Notes: generated from the letters alone by a model not told the origin. 64,000 bases of DNA from a virus (IMGVR_UViG_3300028027_000002:47871-111870), one strand, 5' to 3'; shown: positions 27,003-62,663, counted from the first letter of the stretch. Translations and numbers: made by a program.

Positions 27003-27158
27003 ATGGGTAGTAGAATGTATACATCAGAAGTTTTTATGCGTAAGAGATATCTTGTGGATAAAAAAACACCAGAAGACATTGCAAAGGAATGCGGTTGCTC
27101 ATTGGAGACCGTCTATGTCTACCTTGCTAAATTTGGATTAAGGAAGTCAAAGCGATGA
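27003..27158 (+). CDS. Small HTH protein
   Basis: TPEDIAKECGCSLETVYVYLAKFG helix-turn-helix. Confidence 0.65.
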   Translation: MGSRMYTSEVFMRKRYLVDKKTPEDIAKECGCSLETVYVYLAKFGLRKSKR

Positions 27159-41864: not shown

Positions 41865-42149
41865 ATGCCAAAGCACGAATGGAAAGATGATGCTTTGTGT
41901 TTAGATTACGACACAAATATATTCTTTGAAAAGTATGAAGATGATGAACTTCTAAGACCTGCAGTAGACAAACTTTGTTCTATGTGTCCAGTGTCTAAGA
42001 TGTGTTTTGCTGTTGGTGTTTCACAAAAAGAGTGGGGTATCTGGGGTGGAGTTTATCTCGAAGGTGGACAAATATCTAAAGAGTTTTCAAAACATAAGTC
42101 TAAAACAGACTGGGCAAATACTTGGCAAAGACTAACAACGGAGCAATAA
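41865..42149 (+). CDS. whiB: WhiB-family Fe-S transcription regulator
   Basis: W...ALC...FF...C..CPV...C...GIWGG. Confidence 0.92.
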   Translation: MPKHEWKDDALCLDYDTNIFFEKYEDDELLRPAVDKLCSMCPVSKMCFAVGVSQKEWGIWGGVYLEGGQISKEFSKHKSKTDWANTWQRLTTEQ

Positions 42150-46696: not shown

Positions 46697-46698
46697 AG

Positions 46699-46770
46699 CA
46701 CCCCTGGCAGGAATCGAACCTGCGACAAACGGATTAGAAGTCCGCTACTCTTCCGCTGAGTTACAGAGGT
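46699..46770 (-). tRNA. tRNA-Arg(TCT)
   Basis: Cloverleaf; GCGGA-CTTCTAA-TCCGT; GGTTCGATTCC. Confidence 0.92.
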
Positions 46771-46774
46771 ATTG

Positions 46775-46847
46775 TATCTCCAACGGAATTCGAATCCGTG
46801 TTGCTGCCGTGAAAGGGCAGAGTCCTAGGCCACTAGACGATGAAGAC
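46775..46847 (-). tRNA. tRNA-Glu(TTC)
   Basis: Cloverleaf; CTGCC-CTTTCAC-GGCAG. Confidence 0.92.
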
Positions 46848-46851
46848 TTAG

Positions 46852-46925
46852 TACATCTGGAAGGACTTGAACCTTCGGCTCTCTGCATATAAGGCAGGTA
46901 CTCTAACCAACTGAGTTACAGATGT
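46852..46925 (-). tRNA. tRNA-Ile(TAT)
   Basis: Cloverleaf; CTGC-CTTATAT-GCAG; GGTTCAAGTCC. Confidence 0.88.
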
Positions 46926-46929
46926 GTAG

Positions 46930-47004
46930 TACACCAGGTAGGACTTGAACCTACGAATAACCGAATTATGAGTTCGGGGCCTTAACCAACTTGGCTACTG
47001 GTGC
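46930..47004 (-). tRNA. tRNA with CAT anticodon (Met or Ile2)
   Basis: Cloverleaf; CCGAA-CTCATAA-TTCGG; lacks the initiator GGG/CCC anticodon stem. Confidence 0.9.
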
Positions 47005-52793: not shown

Positions 52794-52834
52794 TAGTCTA
52801 TTCTATCACATCAAGGTTAACAGTTATCCACAGG

Positions 52835-53065
52835 TTAGTGTTTATTTAGCCACTCCTGAAAATCTTTTTTGGCTTTCTCTTTTGGCCATCTGGAGAGATC
52901 ATCCCCATTCTTGATAGCCTCTTTTCTTTCATAATCATCCAAACCAATAAAGTATCCAACTATACTCAAACATACTGACCACCAAAAAGATAGTCCAAGA
53001 AGTGCTGAAAATACAATAAAGAATGCAGTTGTTAGTATTGGCTCTGTCTTGATTTTTTGATTCAT
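52835..53065 (-). CDS. Small membrane protein
   Basis: Two TM helices. Confidence 0.5.
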   Translation of the reverse strand: MNQKIKTEPILTTAFFIVFSALLGLSFWWSVCLSIVGYFIGLDDYERKEAIKNGDDLSRWPKEKAKKDFQEWLNKH

Positions 53066-53078
53066 AGTTTCCTATAAG

Positions 53079-53402
53079 TTAAAATGATAGGATTGTAGCA
53101 ACAAATAGAGCAAGGATTAGAAGCCCAAACGAACCACACAAGAAGAGAGCAACACCATTTAGATATACCTGATTCATTGCTGATTTTCTAAGTTGGTTTG
53201 GCTTTGTATAAAACTCTGGATCAATACTTTCTATTAAAGCCCTTGCCTCATTCACAGGAATCTTTTCTTCCCTTGCAGCACCAAAGATATCTCTGACTGC
53301 TTCATCAACATATAGTTTTGCATCTTCTGGAGATAACTCAGACATTTCTTTTTTGATTCTTATCTTAAGGTGTACAAGGCTTTCTCCGTCTTTTAGTATC
53401 AT
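53079..53402 (-). CDS. Membrane protein with C-terminal TM
   Basis: ORF with upstream TTGACA-17-TATACT. Confidence 0.5.
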   Translation of the reverse strand: MILKDGESLVHLKIRIKKEMSELSPEDAKLYVDEAVRDIFGAAREEKIPVNEARALIESIDPEFYTKPNQLRKSAMNQVYLNGVALFLCGSFGLLILALFVATILSF

Positions 53403-54480
53403 TGTAATCTTTCTGTTGTAGTTATATTCTAAGTATATACCCGCAGATGTGGTTTGTCAATAGGACTTATCCACAGATAAATACCCATAAAAATGTTAGT
53501 TATCCACACCTTTATCCACAGATAAATGTTACTGATTATATTATTAGACAGTCTAGAAGTGGAGTGAAGTGGAGGATAGTGGAGTAGGGAGCATCTTTAA
53601 AGAGGGCGTCGTAATCTTTTATAGCGGCCAAACCTCACATCTCCAAACCTTATAGCCCCCTTATACCACATATGAATCATATTGTCAAACCTTTGTATGC
53701 ATGGTTTGGGCATTATATACCAAACCTTTGTATTTGTCAAGCCCATTTTATGCCAAAACCTCATATAAAATTTGCTCAAATTTGCTCAGAAAATAAAGAA
53801 AACCTTCATAAAAATATATAAAGGTTTGGAAAAGTTTTAAAAATCAGGAAATAATTTATAGTGGTTTGTTATGGTGTATATACTATAGGGGATTGTGGGT
53901 TTCATCTTGATCCCCTGGCAAAATCGCCTGGTACGGGGAAGAAAAATGCTCCATCGTAATCTTATTTTGAAAAGCCCTGGTACGGGGAAAAATTTTGCTC
54001 CTTCGTAATCTTTTTTTAGAAGAGCGTCAGTTGTGTATAGACGTTGTCCCCACCTGCGGTGTCCTTAGCAGGATTATGATTCATTTTTAGCGGGGGAGAC
54101 TTAGGAAAGAAAGCCTTAAGAGTAACAATAGAATACAACATACCAGTTAAAGCACCCACTGCTTGATCAAACCCATATGAATCATATGGTGTATCATGTC
54201 TATGTGATTTGCTATTAATCATCTGAGCAAAATGGTCTCTAGGCATATCTTTATTATAACACCAGATATGAAGGTTTGACAAACAAGGTTTGATATGGTA
54301 TAAGGTTTGGTACGGGGAAAAGAATTCGTCCTTCGTAATCTTATTCTGGGAAAAATAAATGAGTGATCGTAATCTTATTTTGGAAATGTGGTTTGTCTAA
54401 TATGTCCGATTTGATATGATTTGACGTCGACGTCCCATAACCCCAGGCTTTTGTCAAGCCCAGGGATCAAGGATAAGATA
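53403..54480. repeat. Largely non-coding repeat-rich region (candidate origin/control region)
   Basis: DnaA boxes at 53467, 53500, 53512; many CAAACCT/AGGTTTG heptamers; AT-rich stretch 53760-53870; three TGGTACGGGGAA...TCGTAATCTT direct repeats. Confidence 0.6.
54016..54246 (-). CDS. Hypothetical protein
   Basis: Leaderless TATAAT-6-ATG (MPRDHF...). Confidence 0.45.
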   Translation of the reverse strand: MPRDHFAQMINSKSHRHDTPYDSYGFDQAVGALTGMLYSIVTLKAFFPKSPPLKMNHNPAKDTAGGDNVYTQLTLF

Positions 54481-54481
54481 G

Positions 54482-54793
54482 TTACTCTTGTGTGTCGGGT
54501 GGTGTGTTTTCTTTTTTGTTGTAGGCAAACGCCAAAATTGAGCCAAGGTCTCTATCTTCAATAGAGCCATCAACTTCTTCCTCAGTGACATTAATTAAAT
54601 CTAGAAACATCTTGAATGTTTCATTAATCATTTCTTCACCAAGTGGTGTTAGGTCTTTAATCAAACCTTGTGCCACCATGTATGCCATTGGACAACCTAG
54701 GTCGTTGTATTCCATAAAATTCTTGAAGTCTTCATCTTCACGGAATTCAATCCATAGTTGACCAATCGTTCCTGCTTTATCTGCGAAGTCCAT
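54482..54793 (-). CDS. Hypothetical acidic protein
   Basis: ORF; FMEYNDLGCPMAY motif. Confidence 0.6.
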   Translation of the reverse strand: MDFADKAGTIGQLWIEFREDEDFKNFMEYNDLGCPMAYMVAQGLIKDLTPLGEEMINETFKMFLDLINVTEEEVDGSIEDRDLGSILAFAYNKKENTPPDTQE

Positions 54794-55016
54794 TTACGGG
54801 TCCTTTCATCTCTAACATAAGTTTATCATACTCTTCCATAGATGTCAAACTCAAAACCTCTAGTCTGTGGTAGTTAATCAAGGGTAGGTTTCTTACCATG
54901 TAGTATCCTACTCTTTCTAAGTCTACCGCAAAATCTTGGGTAAGAAGTCTGCCTAACTGTTCTGCCATTCGTGTTTCTTTATTATGAGTCGCCGTTCGTC
55001 TAATTGAATAAGCCAT
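54777..55016 (-). CDS. Hypothetical protein
   Basis: GAGGAG RBS; TTGCGC-17-TACAAT promoter. Confidence 0.55.
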   Translation of the reverse strand: MAYSIRRTATHNKETRMAEQLGRLLTQDFAVDLERVGYYMVRNLPLINYHRLEVLSLTSMEEYDKLMLEMKGPVNGLRR

Positions 55017-55111
55017 AGGTATCTCCTCTGTTCCATTGTATCAAAAAGTAAGGGGGAGCGCAAGCCTACGAAAACCTACGCTCCACCCTGTTAGTCTAAG
55101 GGACCCACTCC

Positions 55112-55480
55112 TTAGATCTGCTCAACCAAAACCTTTGGCACATAAGCATTAATAAATAACTGCCAGTCAACCTGTAGGTCTCTGCCAGCCTCATAGATAG
55201 TCTCTTTAGCAATATCGATGACTACCGTCGTCTCACCTAGTTCAAAGTTAGTACCAGTAATAGCATAGATACCAAACCCTGTTTCCTCCAGAATTGAATC
55301 TTGCATAAGATAACTAATCATCATACGGGTAAAGTAAGCATAGTCGCTCCACCTAGGTTTTGAATGCTGCAGCGCCATTGCTAGGTCCCGCTGCCACTCA
55401 GTCTCACCCCAGTGGCTATATAGGACTACATGCGCCTCATCTTCAACATCCTTGAATACAAAGTTGATCCGTGCTCCCAT
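55112..55480 (-). CDS. Hypothetical phage protein (LYSHWG motif)
   Basis: AGGAG RBS; MGAR...LYSHWG...YFTRMMI. Confidence 0.6.
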   Translation of the reverse strand: MGARINFVFKDVEDEAHVVLYSHWGETEWQRDLAMALQHSKPRWSDYAYFTRMMISYLMQDSILEETGFGIYAITGTNFELGETTVVIDIAKETIYEAGRDLQVDWQLFINAYVPKVLVEQI

Positions 55481-55770
55481 TAGTCTTGCTCCTTAAAAGA
55501 TACAATTGATAGTTGATTTAAAATTTCATTGCAGAGGTCCTCTTCATTATCTGATTCGGCCTCGTATCTAAATGTCATGTAGTCGCCTGTAGGCTCAAAG
55601 ATTGTTTCAACTTTCCAACTAGGCATTCTCTACCTCAAATGTTTGAATAGTTGTGTAGTGAATAATCTCCTTAACTAAATCCTCTTTTGACCTAGCAGAT
55701 GACTCGTAGTCAAGGATTGTGAGAGATTGCTTTGTTGGTTCAAAAACAAAATACAGGTTGTATTTAGCCA

Positions 55771-56205
55771 TTATTTATTTTCCATTTCTATTAGGGTCAT
55801 TTCTTCAATTGTAGCGCATTGTGGGCACTTTTGCAAGTCTGCCTCGTCAAAGGCATCTCTAACTATATTATCAGGGTCCTCAAACTCAGCATTACAGTTC
55901 TCGCAGTAGAACCAGTTATGGCTTACCAAGACCTGCACGGTATCGTCAGGGGTGAAAGGAATCTCAGTGACAAAGTATCCTATTCTATTAACAAATCCCC
56001 AACCATTCCAGATATATGTGCCACCGTCGTCTCCGTCTCCATACATCCAGATATGGCCATTGCCTGCCTGCTTTACAAACTCTACTTCCTCACCATATGT
56101 TTCAAACATCAATCCGTCGAATGAAGCATTAGTGTCTATATGATTAGTGATAGGCTTGTACTTATCTACCCACTCTTCAAATTCAAGTTCTGTAAAGTTA
56201 CCCAT
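55771..56205 (-). CDS. Hypothetical protein with C-terminal zinc ribbon
   Basis: MFETYG...GFVNRIGYFVT; CENC...CPQC. Confidence 0.6.
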   Translation of the reverse strand: MGNFTELEFEEWVDKYKPITNHIDTNASFDGLMFETYGEEVEFVKQAGNGHIWMYGDGDDGGTYIWNGWGFVNRIGYFVTEIPFTPDDTVQVLVSHNWFYCENCNAEFEDPDNIVRDAFDEADLQKCPQCATIEEMTLIEMENK

Positions 56206-56458
56206 TACTCTTTATCCTATCTGCGATAGCAAATGCTAGGTCATATGTTAATTGGTATACTTCTACATAAGCGTCAAGCATACCCTCTAGATGTAGGCGG
56301 TCTACGGTTTGGTCATACTGCTCATTCTCATGGTCAGTATACTCAGCCAATGCTTGCTCGGTTTGATACATGAGGTTCTTTAATTCCCCATGTAGGATGT
56401 TGGTACCTGATTCACCTAAGTCAATCAGTTTTTGTAGTCTTGGGTCTAATGTTGTCAT
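56198..56458 (-). CDS. Hypothetical protein
   Basis: Leaderless gene under a RecA-NDp-type promoter. Confidence 0.55.
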   Translation of the reverse strand: MTTLDPRLQKLIDLGESGTNILHGELKNLMYQTEQALAEYTDHENEQYDQTVDRLHLEGMLDAYVEVYQLTYDLAFAIADRIKSNG

Positions 56459-56666
56459 TAGTCTATTGTAGCCTCTAGCACTGACAAGAAATGGTAGCAG
56501 GCAAGAATCTGTCCAGTAGTAGAAACATCTTCTAACTCTAAGTCCTTATACTCATCACAGTCAAGGTCATCATAGAAGCCCATTTGCTTCTGTAGTTCCT
56601 CAGAGTCTTGCTCCAAGGACAGCAGGTGTAGTCTTACATATTCTTCGAATGTTTTTAGGTCCATAG
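56458..56666 (-). CDS. Hypothetical acidic protein
   Basis: Likely start MDLKTF; leaderless TTGTCA-17-TATAAT. Confidence 0.5.
56465..56486 (-). promoter_or_regulatory. RecA-NDp/PafBC-type promoter
   Basis: TGTCAG-tgctagaggc-TACAAT. Confidence 0.75.
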
Positions 56667-56668
56667 TA

Positions 56669-56899
56669 TTAATTATACGGGTTGGAGTCGATTTTGACAA
56701 CTGTACGGGGTGTGACCTTGCTCACATCTGTAATGATCGGAGCATAGGCCTCTTCATAACTAATATAGTTTAACATCCTACCACAAGGGCATTTCATTTC
56801 TACAACGCCCAGGGGAAAGCCAAAGCCATCCCTAGCAGTAAACTCAACCATAGCGTCACACTCTTCGGGATCACAGACAAAGGTATACTTACTCCACAT
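56669..56899 (-). CDS. Small zinc-binding protein
   Basis: CDPEEC...CPCG. Confidence 0.55.
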   Translation of the reverse strand: MWSKYTFVCDPEECDAMVEFTARDGFGFPLGVVEMKCPCGRMLNYISYEEAYAPIITDVSKVTPRTVVKIDSNPYN

Positions 56900-57224
56900 T
56901 AGTCAAAGTACCCTTCTGCCCATAGTCCATCTAAGAACTCTGTTGCTTTAAATAGATTATCATGTAGCCAAGGGTCGTTGTTAAAATCAACGGTAGTTAA
57001 AGCAGAATGAATAGCCATAGACATATTGTCTAGATCTTCTTTAGTATAACCTAACATACTTCCTCATCCCACCAGTATTTGACTATAGTATTTAAGGTAG
57101 TGTGAATTGCACAATCACAATCCCCACCGTTCATATTTTCCATGTATTCGAGATGGGACTCGTTGTCCATATACATCTCATTGACTAGTTCGTCAATCGT
57201 TCTCATTGTTTGGGTCATGTATTA

Positions 57225-57246
57225 ATTGTAGCGTATGGGACTGACA
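57225..57246 (-). promoter_or_regulatory. RecA-NDp/PafBC-type promoter
   Basis: TGTCAG-tcccatacgc-TACAAT, ATG 6 nt downstream. Confidence 0.75.
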
Positions 57247-57338
57247 AATGCAAGGTTTGGGGAAAAAATATTTCCTATCGTAAAGAATTTCTGGGAAAAA
57301 TATCAGCCTATCGTAAAGTTATTTAATTAAAAATATTA

Positions 57339-57354
57339 TGTGATGTAGGTCACA
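57339..57354. promoter_or_regulatory. CRP/GlxR-type box
   Basis: TGTGA-TGTAGG-TCACA, perfect consensus. Confidence 0.7.
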
Positions 57355-57403
57355 GCCGACGTCGCAAAATTTTTATGCATTGCGTTGCATATTTATTTAC
57401 TTG

Positions 57404-57477
57404 CGATCCGTATGGGACTTGAACCCATGACCTCCACCGTGACAGGGTGGCGAACTAACCAACTATTCTAACGGACC
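57404..57477 (-). tRNA. tRNA-Asp(GTC)
   Basis: Cloverleaf; CCACC-CTGTCAC-GGTGG; GGTTCAAGTCC. Confidence 0.92.
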
Positions 57478-57481
57478 ATGT

Positions 57482-57511
57482 TGAGCAGTTTTAATTCATG
57501 CTCAGGAAATT
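57482..57511 (-). ncRNA. Repeated pseudoknot motif, copy 3
   Basis: AATTTC-C-TGAGCA-T-GAATT-AAAAC-TGCTCA. Confidence 0.65.
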
Positions 57512-57514
57512 TTG

Positions 57515-58528
57515 TTATGCGTTTGTTAGTTCACGCACAACTTTTAGCAAACGATTTTTTTCTGCGTTGATAGCAGGGTCAAAACCACTTGCAGATGCAA
57601 GAATGGATTCGTTAGAACCACCACGAGCAGAACGGTACCAGTCAAGGCGTTCTGTTAGTGCATTGAAAGCACCCCACGCATTACCAGCAATCATTCCATT
57701 AAACTCGCCTGTATAGATGTCGTTAATAACATCTACCTTGTTTTCCCATTTCTTGAAAGCACCCTTAGAATCCTTTTCAGGCTTTGGGTATGCAGCAAGA
57801 ATGATGTCGTTAAACATCTGAGCAGACACTTCTTTTTCAATCATAGCCTTAGCCATAAGGTCAAAAGAGTCCATGTACTTATGTGCAAGTCCAAGAGTTT
57901 CACGAGCAACGGCAACCTTACCGCTTGCAGTTTGTGTGTGACGAATCTTGAATGATTGCTTTACGCCACCCTTTTTGCGGGTAGTGTTAAGTGCAAGATT
58001 GAGAGTGTTAGCGCACACAACACGAACAGGTGTAATGCTTGCTTGAATAGCGATTGAGCCATCATGTGATGTGTTGATGAGCAAATAAGTTTTTACCTTG
58101 TCTGCAACACCATTAGGGTCAAGAATTGTTTCACGCTCTAGTGCTAAAGCACCGAACACTACACGACCACCCTTGATTGAGCCAGCCGTTTCCCAACGAC
58201 CACCACCATCAAGAATGTTATCACCGAATGAAAATAAATCTTCATTCTGCATTACATGGTAACGCTCACCAACGACACCAAGAATGTCGGTCTGAGTGTT
58301 GTCAGTAGGATTGGTACGCAATACATACTGATAGTTTTTGTCGCTTGTTAGGTGTGTGGGGGTTTCCAAATCCTCAAGACGAACATTCCAGTTGGAAAGG
58401 TTAGCCAAATCTAACATTTCTTTTGTGGTTTTTTCCTCTGTGAATACGGTACCCAATCCATGCCAAGCGGGTTCACGGAAAGATGCAAAAGATGCTTTTC
58501 CGTTTTGTGTTTCTAGGTCATGTGCCAT
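57515..58528 (-). CDS. DUF932 (phage/plasmid-like) protein
   Basis: PAWHGLG, ETAGSIKGGRVVF, NTSHDGS, TPVRVVCANTL, IRHT, AWGAFNALTE. Confidence 0.88.
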   Translation of the reverse strand: MAHDLETQNGKASFASFREPAWHGLGTVFTEEKTTKEMLDLANLSNWNVRLEDLETPTHLTSDKNYQYVLRTNPTDNTQTDILGVVGERYHVMQNEDLFSFGDNILDGGGRWETAGSIKGGRVVFGALALERETILDPNGVADKVKTYLLINTSHDGSIAIQASITPVRVVCANTLNLALNTTRKKGGVKQSFKIRHTQTASGKVAVARETLGLAHKYMDSFDLMAKAMIEKEVSAQMFNDIILAAYPKPEKDSKGAFKKWENKVDVINDIYTGEFNGMIAGNAWGAFNALTERLDWYRSARGGSNESILASASGFDPAINAEKNRLLKVVRELTNA

Positions 58529-58559
58529 GAGTTTTCTCCTTTTTGTTGTTGTTAATTTA

Positions 58560-58581
58560 AGTATACACCCACCCACTGACA
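58560..58581 (-). promoter_or_regulatory. RecA-NDp/PafBC-type promoter
   Basis: TGTCAG-tgggtgggtg-TATACT. Confidence 0.75.
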
Positions 58582-58711
58582 AATGCAAATCGGGATAGTT
58601 AGATGTGGATAAATCGGACATTGTGGTGAAGATCACCTATCGTAAACGGCGTGTCGATTTGACAAAGTTATCCACAGGCGGGACGTCAAAAATTTGCAGG
58701 GATTTTAAAAA

Positions 58712-58740
58712 TGAGCAGTTTTTAAACATGCTCAGGTTTA
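58712..58740 (-). ncRNA. Repeated pseudoknot motif, copy 4
   Basis: TAAAC-C-TGAGCA-T-GTTTA-AAAAC-TGCTCA followed by T-run. Confidence 0.65.
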
Positions 58741-58754
58741 TTAGTAGCCCCCTA

Positions 58755-59174
58755 CTAAATATCCACTCGGTCAATCGATGACGATAACCATGAAATATTA
58801 TCTGAGTTGTATTGCACTGTATCAAAATCAATATCATGAATTAAATTCTGTGCATCCTCTTCATTACGAGCATTGACAGTTACGGAGTACATTACTGTAA
58901 CTTCAACTTCAAATTCTTTTGATAGTTCAAATCCACAGATATCTGCAATTTCTTGTGCTTCTGATTCATTCAATGTACCAGAGTCAAGCGCTTCCAGTGT
59001 CCACTCTTGCATTGCTTCAACGATACGATTCTTATCTGCAGACTCGCCGTATGAGCGTTGTGTTACTACTTGAATATGCTTTTCTAGTTCATCTATGCGT
59101 GTTTTGTTTTGTGCAAGAGTGGTTTCTAAAAACTCTCTTGTCATGTAGTGATTATCGATTACTGGTTGGTCCAT
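58755..59174 (-). CDS. Hypothetical acidic protein
   Basis: GAGG RBS; C-terminal VTVNARNEEDA motif. Confidence 0.6.
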   Translation of the reverse strand: MDQPVIDNHYMTREFLETTLAQNKTRIDELEKHIQVVTQRSYGESADKNRIVEAMQEWTLEALDSGTLNESEAQEIADICGFELSKEFEVEVTVMYSVTVNARNEEDAQNLIHDIDFDTVQYNSDNISWLSSSIDRVDI

Positions 59175-59208
59175 AAGGGCTACCTCTTTCTGTTAGTTGT
59201 TTAGTTTA

Positions 59209-59230
59209 ATTGTACTGGGTACCACTGACA
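59209..59230 (-). promoter_or_regulatory. RecA-NDp/PafBC-type promoter (also TTGACA -35)
   Basis: TTGACAAA-TGTCAG-tggtacccag-TACAAT. Confidence 0.75.
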
Positions 59231-59251
59231 TTTGTCAAGGGCCCTTGCGGG

Positions 59252-59278
59252 GAGCAGTTTTGATACTTACTCAGGTAT
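59252..59278 (-). ncRNA. Repeated pseudoknot motif, copy 5
   Basis: ATAC-C-TGAGTA-A-GTAT-CAAAAC-TGCTC. Confidence 0.55.
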
Positions 59279-59430
59279 TTACACTTCTTGCAGTTGGTGT
59301 GAACTGGCTCTATAGTATTTCTATTATCGCCCTAATCAGCCTGGCGAATGATCCCTAGGGAACGCTTGCTATAAATAGCGTGGAGCGCAAGGGATAATGA
59401 GTGGGGCTTTTACACCCCACCCAATCTCAC

Positions 59431-59853
59431 TTAGAGGTAACGAGCAACCGCATTGTAAGTGCTGGTGCTAACTACTTCCTCATCTGTCATCTTGAGAATA
59501 CGAATTGCGTTTGAGATTTCCTCTTTCTGCTCACGATAGTTATAGATAGAGATTGACTCAAAATCCTTTACAGGCTCTTTTGGCAAATCCTTTTCTGCTA
59601 CTGTGAGGTCGAAGTCAATGTTTAACTGATTGTTCCATGAGCGATAGTTAGTGCGGAAGTTTTCTGCCTTCTTGATGTTTGCTATTGCATAATCAACAAG
59701 TTCCTTTTTCCACTTCTCGTATTGCTTTTGGTACTTTGCTTCGTTTGCTTCTTGTGAGGTGTAATCAAGTTCTAGTTTTGCTAGTGCGCCTTCTAGTGCC
59801 TTGATTACCTTTGGTGTTGCGATTTTTACTGAGATTGCTTTTTGTCGTGCCAT
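59431..59853 (-). CDS. Hypothetical coiled-coil protein
   Basis: ORF under RecA-NDp-type promoter. Confidence 0.6.
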   Translation of the reverse strand: MARQKAISVKIATPKVIKALEGALAKLELDYTSQEANEAKYQKQYEKWKKELVDYAIANIKKAENFRTNYRSWNNQLNIDFDLTVAEKDLPKEPVKDFESISIYNYREQKEEISNAIRILKMTDEEVVSTSTYNAVARYL

Positions 59854-59888
59854 GTTGGTTTCTCTTTTCTTTTTGTGGGTTAGTTTCT

Positions 59889-59910
59889 ATTATAGGGGGT
59901 GGGTCTGACA
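59889..59910 (-). promoter_or_regulatory. RecA-NDp/PafBC-type promoter
   Basis: TGTCAG-acccaccccc-TATAAT. Confidence 0.75.
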
Positions 59911-59993
59911 TTTCCCCCGTAGGGGGGAGAGTTCTTACTTACGACATTGGACTAGATACTCTCCTAAACTGTCCCTGTTTCGATTATCTTATT

Positions 59994-60161
59994 TTACTTT
60001 GCTGTCCAAGTTGTCCAGCGTGTGTTACCATTTACATCTAACTTAACACGAACTGTGTCGCCTGTCTTGCTAGGTGCGATTTCCAAGATTGTGCCTGTTA
60101 CCTTTGACTTCTGTGAAGTGTATAGGTCGCCTACCTTGTATGTTGCGGTTGCTACTGTCAT
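59994..60161 (-). CDS. Small SH3/KOW-like beta protein (not in ORF track)
   Basis: MTVATATYKVGDL...VTGTILEI...VRVKL...RWTTW, AAGGA RBS. Confidence 0.55.
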   Translation of the reverse strand: MTVATATYKVGDLYTSQKSKVTGTILEIAPSKTGDTVRVKLDVNGNTRWTTWTAK

Positions 60162-60273
60162 TTTGTTTTTCCTTTTCTGTTAGGGTTTGTTGCCTTATGT
60201 ATTAAGTATAGCAAAAAATCTAAGAAATAACAAATCCATTTCCAAATAATCTCAAAATGTGAGACATTATCTA

Positions 60274-60289
60274 TGTGATTTGCGTCACT
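60274..60289. promoter_or_regulatory. CRP/GlxR-type box (one mismatch)
   Basis: TGTGA-TTTGCG-TCACT; second near-site GGTGA-GAAACA-TCACA at 60360-60375. Confidence 0.55.
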
Positions 60290-60507
60290 AGGTTTCCTGC
60301 TTATAATACAATTTTAGCAGAAAAATCTCAAAAATACAAATCCTGCCTCAAAACCTGGGGGTGAGAAACATCACATCGTAAACCTGCGTGTTGGGCTTGA
60401 CAAATGACTGGTCAGCCGACGTCCCATTTTTCAGGGGATTAGCCACTACCTCCTAAGATAGAAACCATTACTATTAGTATCATTAGTAAATAGAACCAAG
60501 GGCTCAT

Positions 60508-61242
60508 TTATTTTTTACTTGCACTAAATATGATATCACTCTTAGAGTATACACAAAGTGAGCAAGAAACGCAAGCGCTACCAGCAGTTGAGATAAGTGG
60601 AATTTGTTTATTATTCTCAGGACACTTAGCAGCAGGACGGCCAGTCATTTCTTTTACATCGGCTTGACCAATAGCGAAATTCTTAGCAAGGTATGCCATG
60701 CGAACACCGCTATTAATTTTTAGATCAACCGCTGTTTTTACATTCTCGCTATCTGCAGAGAAGTATAGACTAAGATTAGGAATGTCCTTAAGAATAAGTG
60801 CAGCACTCTTTACACGAGTGTATACCCAGAATTGAACATCCTCATGCTTATCAATAACTACTTTCCATGCATATGTATATGTATCATTAAAGAAATCTCC
60901 GTCCCAGTGGATACGGAATAGCATAGGAGCGTCTTTCTTTATACAGTCATTCTTGAAATCAATGATCATCTCATTAAGCAAGCGGACCATATCTTCACCG
61001 TCTGCGTCTTTAAGCAGATCCCAATTGTGTAATAGGTTAGCCTTTACACCCTTGAAGAGTTTTTCAAGTTTTCCTGCATAGCATACGCTTTCACATACGC
61101 TAGTGGCACCAGGGCACGAGAAAGCCTTTCCAGCAGGTAGACCAAAGGTATTTGCGATTGCGGCTTGCTTTCCATTTTTTGTGACAAGATTAGCCACCTT
61201 TCTATCATTAGAGCGTTTTAGTTTAAGTGTATTAGTAGTCAA
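60508..61242 (-). CDS. GP88-family protein (Cys-rich, radical-SAM-like)
   Basis: FGLPAG...SCPGAT..C...CYA, FRIHWDGDF, FWVYTR, CPEN...CVSCSLC. Confidence 0.75.
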   Translation of the reverse strand: MTTNTLKLKRSNDRKVANLVTKNGKQAAIANTFGLPAGKAFSCPGATSVCESVCYAGKLEKLFKGVKANLLHNWDLLKDADGEDMVRLLNEMIIDFKNDCIKKDAPMLFRIHWDGDFFNDTYTYAWKVVIDKHEDVQFWVYTRVKSAALILKDIPNLSLYFSADSENVKTAVDLKINSGVRMAYLAKNFAIGQADVKEMTGRPAAKCPENNKQIPLISTAGSACVSCSLCVYSKSDIIFSASKK

Positions 61243-61411
61243 GGCCTAGACTCATTTCTAGAGCAATGTCTTCGTTATAAGTATATGACATTTCTTCAAG
61301 AAGGCAATGAGTGCACTTATCTTCATACTCATCTACAGAGTTTTCTTTGCATGAAGGGCACACTGTTGCATAGTACTCATCAAGAATTTCATCGTTTTCG
61401 TAGGTCATGGG

Positions 61412-61558
61412 CTATTCTCCTTTTTGTTGATATTTTAATTGTATCAGTTCGGACTGACATTTCTTTCGATTGTAAGTCCTTTTAGAAGGCACGGCAGAGG
61501 CAGCGTTGCTACGGCGTAGGTCCATAAGCCTGCGGAGTTCCTCATCTGTTTTCTTCAT
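61412..61558 (-). CDS. Small basic protein (not in ORF track)
   Basis: MKKTDEELRRLMDLRRSNAA...; leaderless start. Confidence 0.5.
   Translation of the reverse strand: MKKTDEELRRLMDLRRSNAASAVPSKRTYNRKKCQSELIQLKYQQKGE
61438..61459 (-). promoter_or_regulatory. RecA-NDp/PafBC-type promoter
   Basis: TGTCAG-tccgaactga-TACAAT. Confidence 0.75.
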
Positions 61559-61604
61559 ATAACAATATTAACACACATCCAACAAAAATGTCAAATCTGA
61601 ATCG

Positions 61605-61620
61605 TGTGATTAAAATCACA
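61605..61620. promoter_or_regulatory. CRP/GlxR-type box
   Basis: TGTGA-TTAAAA-TCACA, perfect consensus. Confidence 0.7.
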
Positions 61621-61788
61621 AAAATTTTTCCGAGCCCAGGTTCGGGGAAAAGAAAATTAACCTTCTTAAAGATATTTTATATAGGTTACTGGTGAGTAGG
61701 GCAAGGTTATCCACAGGTTATCCCCAGACACACCCGAACGCGACGTCCAAAAATCGCAGAGTTTTATTTCTGCGATCTTGGTTTTTAT

Positions 61789-62055
61789 TTATTCGTTTTC
61801 TAAATACGATTCAAAATCATTTAGAAAAACACGATACGCAATCGGGTCGCACTCTTTTAGAATGTCAGCAGGATAAAATAAAATTCCTGCAATCACTACT
61901 GGTTCATGCGAATCGTTTATGTATTCGTTGAATTGCTCTTGCAATTCTTGTTCTAACTCATAGTCAGTTTTTTCATCAATCTCATTTAGCAATTCTGCTA
62001 ATACGGGCTCAACTGCTTTTGCAGCAAGGTCTAACTTTTCTTGTAGTGTTTTCAT
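61789..62055 (-). CDS. Hypothetical protein (LKECDPIAYR motif)
   Basis: ORF in early array. Confidence 0.55.
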   Translation of the reverse strand: MKTLQEKLDLAAKAVEPVLAELLNEIDEKTDYELEQELQEQFNEYINDSHEPVVIAGILFYPADILKECDPIAYRVFLNDFESYLENE

Positions 62056-62250
62056 TTATTTAACCAACCCTTCGAACCATTGAGAATAACCACCCATGAA
62101 GAATACCTCTTCACCTTTGTGATTAGTAAGTGTTGCAGTCAATGATTCAGTTTCATCATTAACCTCTAGAATCTCTTTGACAAGATAGTTTTGATCGTTG
62201 GAGATAAACAGTTTTCCAACATTGGTTTTATTTATTAGTGATAGTGACAT
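62056..62250 (-). CDS. Hypothetical protein
   Basis: ORF in early array. Confidence 0.5.
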   Translation of the reverse strand: MSLSLINKTNVGKLFISNDQNYLVKEILEVNDETESLTATLTNHKGEEVFFMGGYSQWFEGLVK

Positions 62251-62553
62251 TAGTTTTCTACTTTCTTTAATTCATGTTGATTGTTAAGGGGGCGATTGTT
62301 ATTGGAGAACATGGCTTCAATAACCGCTTTATCTTTTATTGATTGAGCAATTCTTTTTTCTTGTTGCTCTTTAAGAATTCTATCAAAGGTACTCATTAGT
62401 CAAAGTATCCAAATTCTCCTATGCAAGAACCACAGATACCTGAAAATTCTTGCTCATGCTTTTCGCAATAAGCGACTTTCTTTGTTACATTAGTGTTAGT
62501 CATTTTTGACCTAACCTTTCTTAGTGAGAGTTTCTCACTTTCTTTATACTGTA

Positions 62554-62575
62554 AGTGTAGCATGGGGGACTGACA
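62554..62575 (-). promoter_or_regulatory. RecA-NDp/PafBC-type promoter
   Basis: TGTCAG-tcccccatgc-TACACT. Confidence 0.75.
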
Positions 62576-62614
62576 AATTAGCCTGTTTTTCGGGCGTGTC
62601 GGAAAACTATTTTT

Positions 62615-62663
62615 TGTGATAAGCATCACATGACTTATCCACAGGTTATCCACAGGCGACGTC
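62615..62663. promoter_or_regulatory. Composite block: CRP box + two DnaA boxes + GACGTC
   Basis: TGTGA-TAAGCA-TCACA (62615-30), TTATCCACA (62635, 62646), GACGTC (62658). Confidence 0.75.

Follow-up and report, generated by a model that had tools for sequence, protein, structure and literature searches.

Known arrangements of DnaA boxes

The basal unwinding system (BUS) of bacterial replication origins was reportedly also treated by Richardson in 2016 and 2019. As it occurs at bacterial oriC, it consists of tandem DnaA boxes, a spacer, DnaA-trios, and an AT-rich region (Pelliciari 2021, PMC8287927). How replication starts in large lytic phages that have their own replisome and no initiator is mostly unknown. 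The injection-stop (iss) region of T5 is said to have been described by Heusterspreute in 1987, and the role of the T5 DnaA boxes has been a standing question since that year. The terminal repeat of T5-like phages includes a large untranslated region, rich in repeats, with 8 DnaA boxes in pairs 3 bp apart, and this region was proposed to be an injection-stop signal (Davison, bioRxiv 10.1101/866236; PMC13250531). In Escherichia coli, datA and DARS1/2 are nonorigin clusters of DnaA boxes that alter the availability or the nucleotide state of DnaA (PMC5835720). Here, we describe a T5-like DnaA-box signature in a second, independent phage family, together with a module that has the layout of a BUS.

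Number and distribution of boxes

The window analyzed corresponds to the final 64 kb of a contig (111,870 bp) from a freshwater relative of the large Streptomyces phages (Stanwilliamsviridae). The contig ends overlap by 99 bp, indicating a circular assembly. We found 10 exact matches to TTATCCACA in the window, compared with 0.66 ± 0.83 expected from dinucleotide shuffles (largest shuffle count, 4), while one-mismatch variants were not enriched (24 versus 21), so that the excess is specific to the exact consensus. The 9-mer is an exact high-affinity (R-type) DnaA box of the TTWTNCACA class. A first-pass annotation had recognized the motif as such and listed nine perfect boxes (plus strand, 52824, 53467, 53500, 53512, 58668, 61707, 62635, and 62646; minus strand, 58604) as well as the variant TTATCCCCA at 61718, all of which were recovered at these positions and far above chance. 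It had noticed none in the first 52 kb, where one perfect copy was overlooked (27053, minus strand).

Extending the exact count to the full genome (111.8-kb circular assembly) gave 13 perfect boxes, which were not evenly spread: 10 of them lie within one 13.3-kb block (12% of the genome) of small leftward early genes, and the other 3 are inside ORFs of 677, 1,346, and 90 amino acids. The cluster continues across the contig end with a further pair at genome positions 2190/2201, TTATACACA-gg-TTATCCACA. The changes in the partner variants TTATACACA and TTATCCCCA are at positions 5 and 7 of the box. The 10 boxes of the block were all outside mapped genes, and the earlier description of the listed boxes as intergenic holds, the only ORF sequences that reach boxes 58604 and 62635 being 5′ extensions from GTG starts, which lie upstream of the mapped promoters. 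The GC skew tracked gene direction and was uninformative on the origin. Two classes could be distinguished, class I being an oriC-like module (53467-53590) and class II consisting of boxes in early-promoter cassettes. The features are as follows.

53500..53520, plus strand: class I tandem perfect pair, TTATCCACA-cct-TTATCCACA, reading TGTGGATAA on the gene (minus) strand
53467..53475, plus strand: third perfect box of class I, on the upstream side of the minus-strand promoter that follows and 6 nt from its −35 hexamer
53521..53550, no strand assigned: AT-rich tract adjoining the pair, with the invariant word ATCAGTAA and A at every third position
53559..53584, plus strand: three GTGGAG repeats (CTCCAC on the gene strand) in exact 10-bp phase, in conserved alignment columns
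53432..53460, minus strand: sigma-70-type promoter TTGACA-17-TATACT (11/12 matches), directly downstream of the third box
53600..54480, minus strand: repeat field, largely untranslated, upstream of the class I module
52824..52832, plus strand: a perfect box on its own, preceding the promoter of the gene at 52793-52608
58604..58676, no strand assigned: class II cassette upstream of the DUF932 gene, with GACGTC, box 58668 (plus), box 58604 (minus), and promoter TTGTCAGTG-N8-TATACT
61707..61726, plus strand: class II pair TTATCCACA-gg-TTATCCCCA, 2 nt from a promoter-like site TTGCCC-17-TATAAA (minus strand)
62635..62663, plus strand: class II pair TTATCCACA-gg-TTATCCACA, followed by ggc-GACGTC
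27053..27061, minus strand: isolated perfect box inside the 90-amino-acid ORF, which has a weak HTH match; probably outside the DnaA-box system

Conservation among related loci

We examined 80 related IMG/VR loci, amounting to 1.35 Mb. The exact 9-mer was present in 403 copies and took first place among 1,680 letter permutations (median, 14; reversed word, 10); it was also far more common than any one-mismatch variant, each of which was near background. Only 8% of the boxes fell in ORFs and 92% outside, when ATG-ORFs of at least 70 amino acids, covering 56% of the sequence, were considered. A perfect tandem pair with a gap of 2 to 4 bp was found in 66 of the 80 loci, and the start-to-start spacing of tandem partners was 11 to 12 bp in 86 of 88 cases. 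In the alignment, boxes were kept while spacers and flanks varied. Judging from these patterns, the boxes are under selection throughout the phage family.

An oriC-like module

On the gene strand, class I is made up of the three phased CTCCAC repeats, the AT-rich tract, the tandem pair, the third box, and the promoter. Of 81 sequences, 61 had a perfect pair with a 2- to 3-bp gap at the syntenic position, with conserved boxes and a variable gap, and the module remained constant in these sequences though the downstream genes differ. The third box was 33 to 55 bp from the pair in most relatives, and the TTGACA-17-TATACT promoter, which from its sequence drives the genes at 53402-52835, also follows the boxes in several of them. 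The repeat field upstream contains 12 CAAACC/GGTTTG words plus AAGATTACGA repeats, one small, moderately conserved ORF (ca. 54246-54016), and two conserved promoters, one at 54282-54253 and another, TTGACA-17-TATAAT, at 53740-53712, which is directed into the module.

This layout conforms to the published search rules for a BUS (PMC8287927). Where these allow tandem boxes up to 3 bp apart, the gap is 3 bp in the window and 2 to 3 bp in class I relatives; where they ask for a minimum of 3 NAN DnaA-trios on the DUE side, no more than 16 bp from the box, the tract in the window has 7 NAN triplets after a 5-bp spacer, and the orientation is that of E. coli DUE-R1. Among relatives, 4 to 10 consecutive NAN triplets (mean, 6.6) precede TGTGGATAA on its 5′ side, compared with 2.3 on the opposite flank and 1.2 at class II pairs, and a value of 6 is attained in just 4.9% of A-rich background windows; as independent evidence, this periodicity is weak because it lies inside the conserved word ATCAGTAA and the relatives are closely related. 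The tract is also among the three least stable 30-mers of the 52.7- to 54.7-kb region (dG of −29.7 versus a mean of −36.1), and we regard it as a candidate unwinding element with DnaA-trios. Unlike a bacterial BUS, class I is on a lytic phage genome, away from dnaA/dnaN, TAA, CAG, and GAT predominate among its triplets in place of TAG, and it is flanked by the phased CTCCAC repeats and a promoter reading in. These repeats could be either iteron-like or weak DnaA-like sites sharing the TCCAC core.

Boxes in early-promoter cassettes

Class II boxes, in pairs or singly, belong to cassettes formed by GACGTC, box, CRP-like palindrome, and promoter, and occur in either orientation. On the gene strand at 62635..62663, GACGTC and the pair are followed by a CRP-like TGTGA-N6-TCACA and a TTGTCAG promoter at 62576. 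A GACGTC is also found at 61742-61747, near the 61707..61726 pair, and at the DUF932-gene cassette, relatives have a tandem pair oriented either way. In some relatives, the unit formed by box 52824 and its promoter comes directly after the trio; L022, L024, and L036 have this downstream sequence behind their third box. Given that class II pairs are found in either orientation and have no trios, they need a second role.

We know of no datA/DARS systems used by Actinobacteria. The resemblance to datA and DARS lies in clusters of 3 to 5 consensus boxes outside the origin, several of them in promoter regions; neither IHF nor Fis sites were identified at this locus, however.

Replication genes and the search for an initiator

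The replication proteins reported in the first-pass annotation (DnaB, DnaG, DnaE, and SSB) are indeed encoded, as are RecA and Cas4-like and RuvC-like proteins. The phage encodes WhiB, which makes an actinobacterium its likely host. The accompanying remark that there was no obvious initiator is supported: DnaA domains (PF08299 and PF00308) were not found in the phage, and neither Pfam nor PHROGs revealed a Rep, O, or loader family among the ORFs around the helicase. The ten early-block proteins scanned belonged to PHROG families without known function or had no match, and none was annotated as T5 A1/A2.

Iteron plasmid and P1 oriR origins with auxiliary DnaA boxes share with class I the succession of phased short repeats, AT-rich tract, and tandem boxes at the edge. 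However, the repeats here are hexamers, while iterons are ca. 19 bp, and neither the vicinity nor the rest of the phage genome yielded a gene for a Rep-type initiator; a search of the replication module and early block with Pfam/PHROGs gave no Rep, O, or DnaA family that could serve as the cognate Rep of an iteron origin, although some small ORFs have no assigned function.

Cultured Streptomyces phages

Similar box clusters, in long untranslated gaps, are carried by cultured Stanwilliamsviridae. The trio of EGole is outside the 11,341-bp right repeat, 50 to 94 bp from the point where this repeat starts, and in Bmoc the boxes are 82 to 114 bp outside an 11,063-bp repeat; Circinus has a repeat of just 2,056 bp, with the cluster 5 kb away. 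EGole and the window have a common gene order, with the DUF932 operon, an untranslated region with TTACGA repeats, and the boxes. The BUS arrangement, present in the freshwater clade (61/81 sequences), is absent from the Circinus and EGole clusters: EGole has its AT-richer flank 3′ of TGTGGATAA, and Circinus has no trios. The best DnaA box of the Streptomyces host is TTGTCCACA (PMC4285127), and these phages use TTATCCACA instead.

Possible roles of the boxes

Binding of DnaA, unwinding, origin activity, and promoter control are what we infer from the observed identity, enrichment, conservation, and architecture of the motif. With no initiator gene found, the phage probably uses the DnaA of its host. 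The reading that we tentatively prefer, although we would put it at somewhat less than an even chance, is that the boxes are selected host-DnaA sites, class I acting as a DnaA-dependent origin or unwinding element and the others as parts of DnaA-sensitive early promoters. Host DnaA-ATP would bind the tandem high-affinity pair of class I and then oligomerize onto the adjacent A-periodic tract, melting the DNA as at the BUS of oriC, and the phage replisome of DnaB, DnaG, and DnaE would be loaded at the melted site. The promoter at 53740 probably assists by transcriptional activation and the CTCCAC repeats by binding an accessory protein. The third box and class II boxes, a short way upstream of early promoters, most likely make early transcription responsive to the DnaA state of the host, with some DnaA being soaked up as a side effect. 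The trio at 53.4 to 53.5 kb, singled out in the first-pass annotation as a possible host-DnaA-dependent origin, remains the best candidate, in view of the conserved module, the tandem pair in the correct orientation, the 5-bp spacer with its 7 NAN triplets, and the adjoining phased repeats. If class I were a DnaA-driven unwinding element, the minimal opening module of oriC would be portable to viruses and would offer a compact probe with which to study DnaA in freshwater actinobacteria that are uncultured. Against an origin, the Streptomyces relatives do not preserve the BUS-like orientation and have TTATCCACA in place of TTGTCCACA, the best box of their host, and the EGole and Bmoc clusters, at 50 to 114 bp from the terminal-repeat boundary, point to an end-related function.

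The location of those clusters raises a serious rival, although on balance a rather unlikely one, in which a long terminal repeat would hold the pre-early genes, as in T5, and the cluster at the inner edge of this block would bind membrane-associated DnaA, thereby pausing or anchoring the entering DNA (an injection-stop signal) or helping terminase or replication at the repeat boundary. As in T5, the window has boxes in pairs with gaps of 2 to 3 bp, they sit in a repeat-rich, untranslated stretch of 1 kb that forms the far end of the early gene block, and the boxes are conserved across a family with diverging coding regions; moreover, the gene order matches that of EGole, and the early operon is transcribed towards the boxes, as expected of a first-entering segment. 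However, the T5 DnaA model is itself a hypothesis, the window phage is a circular contig assembly without mapped ends, and the Circinus cluster is far from its short repeat. The phage family and host phylum are also unrelated to those of T5, whose boxes are inside the repeat and embedded in IRC/IRD inverted repeats, while those of EGole and Bmoc are just outside it and no inverted repeats of this type were seen at the boxes here. Such a function would leave unexplained the conserved A-periodic tract and the boxes in promoter cassettes, which are an additional difference from T5. By analogy, one might go further and suppose, though we consider it doubtful, that T5-like phages of Proteobacteria and Stanwilliamsviridae-like phages of Actinobacteria converged on DnaA as a repeat-boundary checkpoint, both of these unrelated siphophage families with long terminal repeats placing tandem host-DnaA boxes at the inner edge of the first-expressed gene block. 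DnaA, being membrane associated and present in almost all bacteria, may hold or open DNA at the repeat boundary and so may couple DNA entry, replication start, and repeat duplication to one host protein; in the freshwater clade, the site may have evolved into a complete oriC-like unwinding module. Since the family includes the cultured EGole, Bmoc, and Circinus, with mapped ends, the question is testable in a tractable system.

An unlikely explanation is that the boxes are only operators for host DnaA, in its ATP or ADP form, activating or repressing early promoters and jointly disturbing host initiation as a sink or modulator of the datA/DARS kind, while replication starts elsewhere, e.g., by recombination (phage RecA) or from a transcript. 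Promoter control or a datA-like sink had been suggested for the dispersed boxes in the first-pass annotation. Most boxes are in promoter cassettes beside CRP-like palindromes, the third box abuts the −35 hexamer (with the 6-nt gap shared by the window and relatives L002 and L005), and cassettes D and F have no boxes, making the box an optional regulatory add-on. The orientation of class II pairs, the RecA, Cas4-like, and RuvC-like proteins, and the inverted and tandem boxes of Circinus and EGole, which loosely recall three-box DARS cores, are in keeping with this as well. On the other hand, boxes and promoters are separated by variable distances (2 to about 75 bp), 10 to 13 boxes per genome are a small sink until phage DNA has replicated, and the class I pair goes together with the AT tract and the phased repeats instead of with a particular promoter, being kept while downstream promoters and genes change. 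If boxes gate entry or early promoters instead of opening an origin, the phage would be reading the replication state of its host. It is very improbable, in turn, that the 9-mer is the site of a phage-encoded or other host DNA-binding protein and its DnaA consensus coincidental. The use of TTATCCACA rather than TTGTCCACA in the Streptomyces relatives would fit, as would the many early ORFs without known function and the private repeats used by the family, of which the second family-specific word TCAAACCTT (349 copies) shows almost as strong an enrichment. However, no DnaA domain IV-like fold was detectable by Pfam in phage proteins, the nearly universal 9-mer is matched exactly with one-mismatch variants near background, and a tandem spacing of 11 to 12 bp is what DnaA arrays typically show. 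Unrelated T5-like phages also use this word, as do distant cultured relatives whose DnaE is only 54% identical, which fits a conserved host protein better than a coevolving phage protein.

Distribution and conservation of exact DnaA boxes

The high-affinity 9-mer DnaA box TTATCCACA (here, the box) was found 10 times in the window, compared with 0.66 ± 0.83 expected from dinucleotide-preserving shuffles, in which the highest count was 4. The enrichment is specific to the exact consensus, since one-mismatch variants remained at the background level (24 versus 21). The first-pass annotation had placed nine perfect boxes between 52824 and 62654, and TTATCCACA was indeed present at every position that it named, as was the variant TTATCCCCA at 61718. 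However, its remark that none was noticed in the first 52 kb has to be corrected, since an exact copy sits at 27053 on the minus strand, within a 90-aa ORF. The contig from which the window was taken (its final 64 kb) is 111,870 bp long and has a 99-bp overlap between its ends; the assembly is thus circular (111,771 bp), and the box cluster extends across the circle junction to a pair at genome positions 2190 and 2201 (TTATACACA-gg-TTATCCACA). The motif count over the full genome bore out the suspected clustering: 10 of the 13 exact boxes were concentrated within a 13.3-kb segment representing 12% of the genome, while the other three fell within ORFs of 677, 1346, and 90 aa. This early block of small minus-strand genes spans from a divergent junction (genome 2.2 to 2.7 kb) to a tRNA cluster at window 47.0 kb. 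The tRNA genes in this part of the window were as follows.

46698-47004, minus strand, tRNA-Arg, -Glu, -Ile, and -Met, end of the early block
57403-57477, lone tRNA-Asp, immediately downstream of the DUF932 gene

Using the DUF932 gene (57515-58636) as an anchor, we found more than 597 relatives in IMG/VR, from which 80 loci were taken (1.35 Mb in total). They contained 403 exact boxes (0.30 per kb), placing the box first when all 1,680 rearrangements of its letters were ranked by count (median of 14 and mean of 18 copies), with only 10 copies of the reversed word. The commonest one-mismatch variant, TTATCAACA, had 83 copies, and every such variant was far below the exact box. ATG-initiated ORFs of 70 aa or more make up 56% of the sequence but contain only 8% of the boxes. 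At least one box was present in 78 of the 80 loci and a perfect tandem pair with a gap of 2 to 4 bp in 66, the partners being 11 or 12 bp apart (start to start) in 86 of 88 cases. Along similar lines, five complete relatives had 4 to 12 boxes apiece versus 0 to 3 copies of the control word. It is almost certain that these sites are DnaA boxes and that they are under selection.

A conserved module resembling a basal unwinding system

The module at 53467-53590 (class I), which contains a tandem pair and a third box, was found in 61 of 81 sequences, followed by genes that vary among relatives. Read on the gene strand, it starts with three CTCCAC copies in exact 10-bp phase and ca. 30 bp of AT-rich sequence with an invariant ATCAGTAA, continues with TGTGGATAA-N2-3-TGTGGATAA (TGTGGATAA being the box as read on this strand) and a third box 33 to 55 bp farther on, and ends with a promoter. 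When 55 relatives were aligned, conservation was seen in the boxes but neither in the gap within the pair nor in the stretch ahead of the third box. Counted from the proximal box, positions -7, -10, -13, -16, -19, -22, and -25 were occupied by A in 74 to 100% of the sequences. The runs of NAN triplets on the AT-tract side had a length of 4 to 10 (mean, 6.6), compared with 2.3 on the opposite flank and a mean of 1.2 at the pairs located in early-promoter cassettes (class II), which led us to reject the latter as additional unwinding modules; runs of at least 6 were found in only 4.9% of A-rich background windows.

Published rules for finding the basal unwinding system (BUS) of bacterial oriC ask for tandem boxes no more than 3 bp apart, a spacer of up to 16 bp, and a minimum of three NAN trios (PMC8287927). 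With a gap of 3 bp, a spacer of 5 bp, and 7 triplets, the class I module of the window falls within these limits. It is oriented as in Escherichia coli oriC, which has its unwinding element 5' of TGTGGATAA (R1); the oriC segment compared was matched in full at 100% identity by the best-scoring E. coli genomes, with a single match per chromosome. The AT tract was also one of the three least stable 30-mers within 52.7 to 54.7 kb. Cumulative GC skew turned only at the gene-direction flip (ca. 46.6 kb) and was thus uninformative as an origin marker.

Boxes in early-promoter cassettes

The early block carries many sigma-70-like minus-strand promoters, several of them of the form TTGTCAGNN-N8-TAnnnT.

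58582-58554, 57246-57209, 62576-62548, and others: early promoters, TTGTCAG(T/A)(G/C)(G/C)-N8-TAnnnT

The class II boxes belong to cassettes which, on the gene strand, consist of a T-run, GACGTC, a box pair or single box, a CRP-like TGTGA-N6-TCACA, and a TTGTCAG-type promoter. In the cassettes at 57.3 and 60.4 kb, GACGTC was present and the box absent, so the box is an optional part. Its distance from the promoter varied from 2 to ca. 75 bp, and the pair upstream of DUF932 was seen in both orientations among relatives. In some relatives, the box and promoter unit at 52824 directly follows the class I trio; an insertion of two genes seems to have separated the unit from the trio in this phage. 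The CRP/GlxR-like TGTGA-N6-TCACA palindromes and GACGTC recur in cassettes at window 57339-62630 and genome 2440-2455.

Host and replication genes

Genes for DnaB, DnaG, SSB, and DnaE lie in the plus-strand part of the window, in agreement with the replisome described in the first-pass annotation, together with genes for RecA, a Cas4-like nuclease, and a RuvC-like resolvase. Among cultured phages, the closest are Stanwilliamsviridae of Streptomyces (BillNye, Circinus, Wakanda, Blueeyedbeauty, Bmoc, and EGole), which share the helicase-primase-SSB-DnaE-RecA order and have DnaE proteins 51 to 55% identical. For the 52- to 60-kb stretch, near and distant DNA searches of the phage collection gave no close cultured phage; apart from tRNA matches, the sole hit was 275 bp of DUF932 sequence in EGole. 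A WhiB-like ORF (41880-42053) matched PF02467 above the cutoff (42 bits), and the stretch was present in 20 public runs, from subsurface and lake-water metagenomes. Given these relatives, the WhiB-like protein, and these habitats, the host is likely a freshwater or groundwater actinobacterium.

The view that the phage lacks an obvious initiator held: a six-frame search of the whole genome gave no match to PF08299 or PF00308, both of which were matched in control genomes, and Pfam and PHROGs searches detected no initiator or helicase-loader family among the early-block ORFs or those neighboring the helicase. Since many small ORFs have no assigned family, there may be a novel phage initiator among them. 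No Lsr2 was found in the phage.

Boxes at terminal repeats of cultured relatives and their possible roles

In Circinus, whose terminal repeat measures 2,056 bp, a 1.27-kb untranslated gap located 5 kb from this repeat contains four exact TTATCCACA copies in 290 bp; a tandem pair and a third, inverted box are among them. In EGole, three boxes (124,219-124,263) lie 50 to 94 bp outside the start (124,313) of the 11,341-bp right terminal repeat, and in Bmoc (121,709-121,823), one exact and one 1-mismatch box lie 82 to 114 bp outside the 11,063-bp right repeat. At the start of both right repeats is an inverted repeat capable of forming a hairpin (GTTCC-GGGCG-GGAAC in EGole and ATGTTCCG-CGC-CGGAACAT in Bmoc). 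The EGole repeat holds the DUF932 operon, transcribed towards the boxes across a 1.2-kb untranslated stretch with TTCGTAA-type repeats, and the order in the window is the same: DUF932, an untranslated field with TTACGA repeats, and then boxes. By analogy, a terminal repeat of ca. 12.7 kb may exist in this phage, from ca. 53.56 kb to genome 2.3 kb, with a box pair at each edge; inspection of the window by eye revealed no evident homologue of the EGole or Bmoc end sequence.

We tentatively favor class I as a candidate DnaA-dependent origin or unwinding element and the promoter-proximal boxes as DnaA-sensitive operators, a reading that is plausible while falling short of probable. The BUS-like arrangement is consistent with it, but the orientation of class I is not retained in EGole or Circinus. 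Moreover, the best DnaA box of Streptomyces is TTGTCCACA (PMC4285127), and the expectation that the Streptomyces relatives would use this host-type box had to be rejected, as their clusters all consist of TTATCCACA, with TTGTCCACA found only as scattered singles. Both observations argue against a simple family-wide DnaA-origin reading. Alternatively, the boxes could act at the terminal-repeat boundary during DNA entry or the processing of ends, which is possible if unlikely. In 25 T5-like phages, DnaA-box pairs 3 bp apart are conserved in a large untranslated, repeat-rich part of the terminal repeat, and it has been hypothesized that membrane DnaA binds them, stopping DNA injection (bioRxiv 10.1101/866236). 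The positions in EGole and Bmoc recall this arrangement. Such a role does not account for the A-periodic AT tract of class I. That the boxes are purely regulatory or titrating, as the promoter cassettes could suggest, seems rather unlikely, and binding by a protein other than DnaA appears very improbable beside an excess confined to the exact consensus. These four mechanistic readings are not mutually exclusive. No paper found in full-text searches linked Stanwilliamsviridae or Streptomyces phages with DnaA boxes; the main value of the feature is that cultured relatives with mapped ends are now usable to test what phage-borne DnaA boxes do.

Repeats at the divergent junction and upstream of class I

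At the divergent junction where the early block starts, two GACGTC sites bracket two sets of four repeats, one of the CCCCTATATA type and one of direct repeats ca. 26 bp long (genome 2215-2480), adjoining the box pair at 2190/2201. In EGole and Bmoc, words of the CCCCTATATA type are likewise found on the flanks of the DnaA cluster and the terminal-repeat boundary. The other repeat boundary, or a second origin-like site, may be located in this region of the phage genome.

The ca. 1 kb upstream of class I is mostly untranslated and holds AAGATTACGA repeats and two conserved promoters, one of which reads into the module.

53740-53712, conserved promoter reading into the class I module

Within this field, 12 copies of CAAACC/GGTTTG, in both orientations, are packed into 760 bp (53629-54390). 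In the early regions of the 80 relatives' loci, TCAAACCTT and CAAACCTTT had 349 and 291 copies versus a median of 14, an overrepresentation nearly at the level of the box, and the word is probably a site for some DNA-binding protein. A 42-nt direct repeat (CCTGGTACGGGGAA...TCGTAATCTTATTTT) has six copies, at window 53927-54381, 57251-57292, and 61637-61678; two of them, near 53927-54017, are absent in most relatives, where the AAGATTACGA core is kept.
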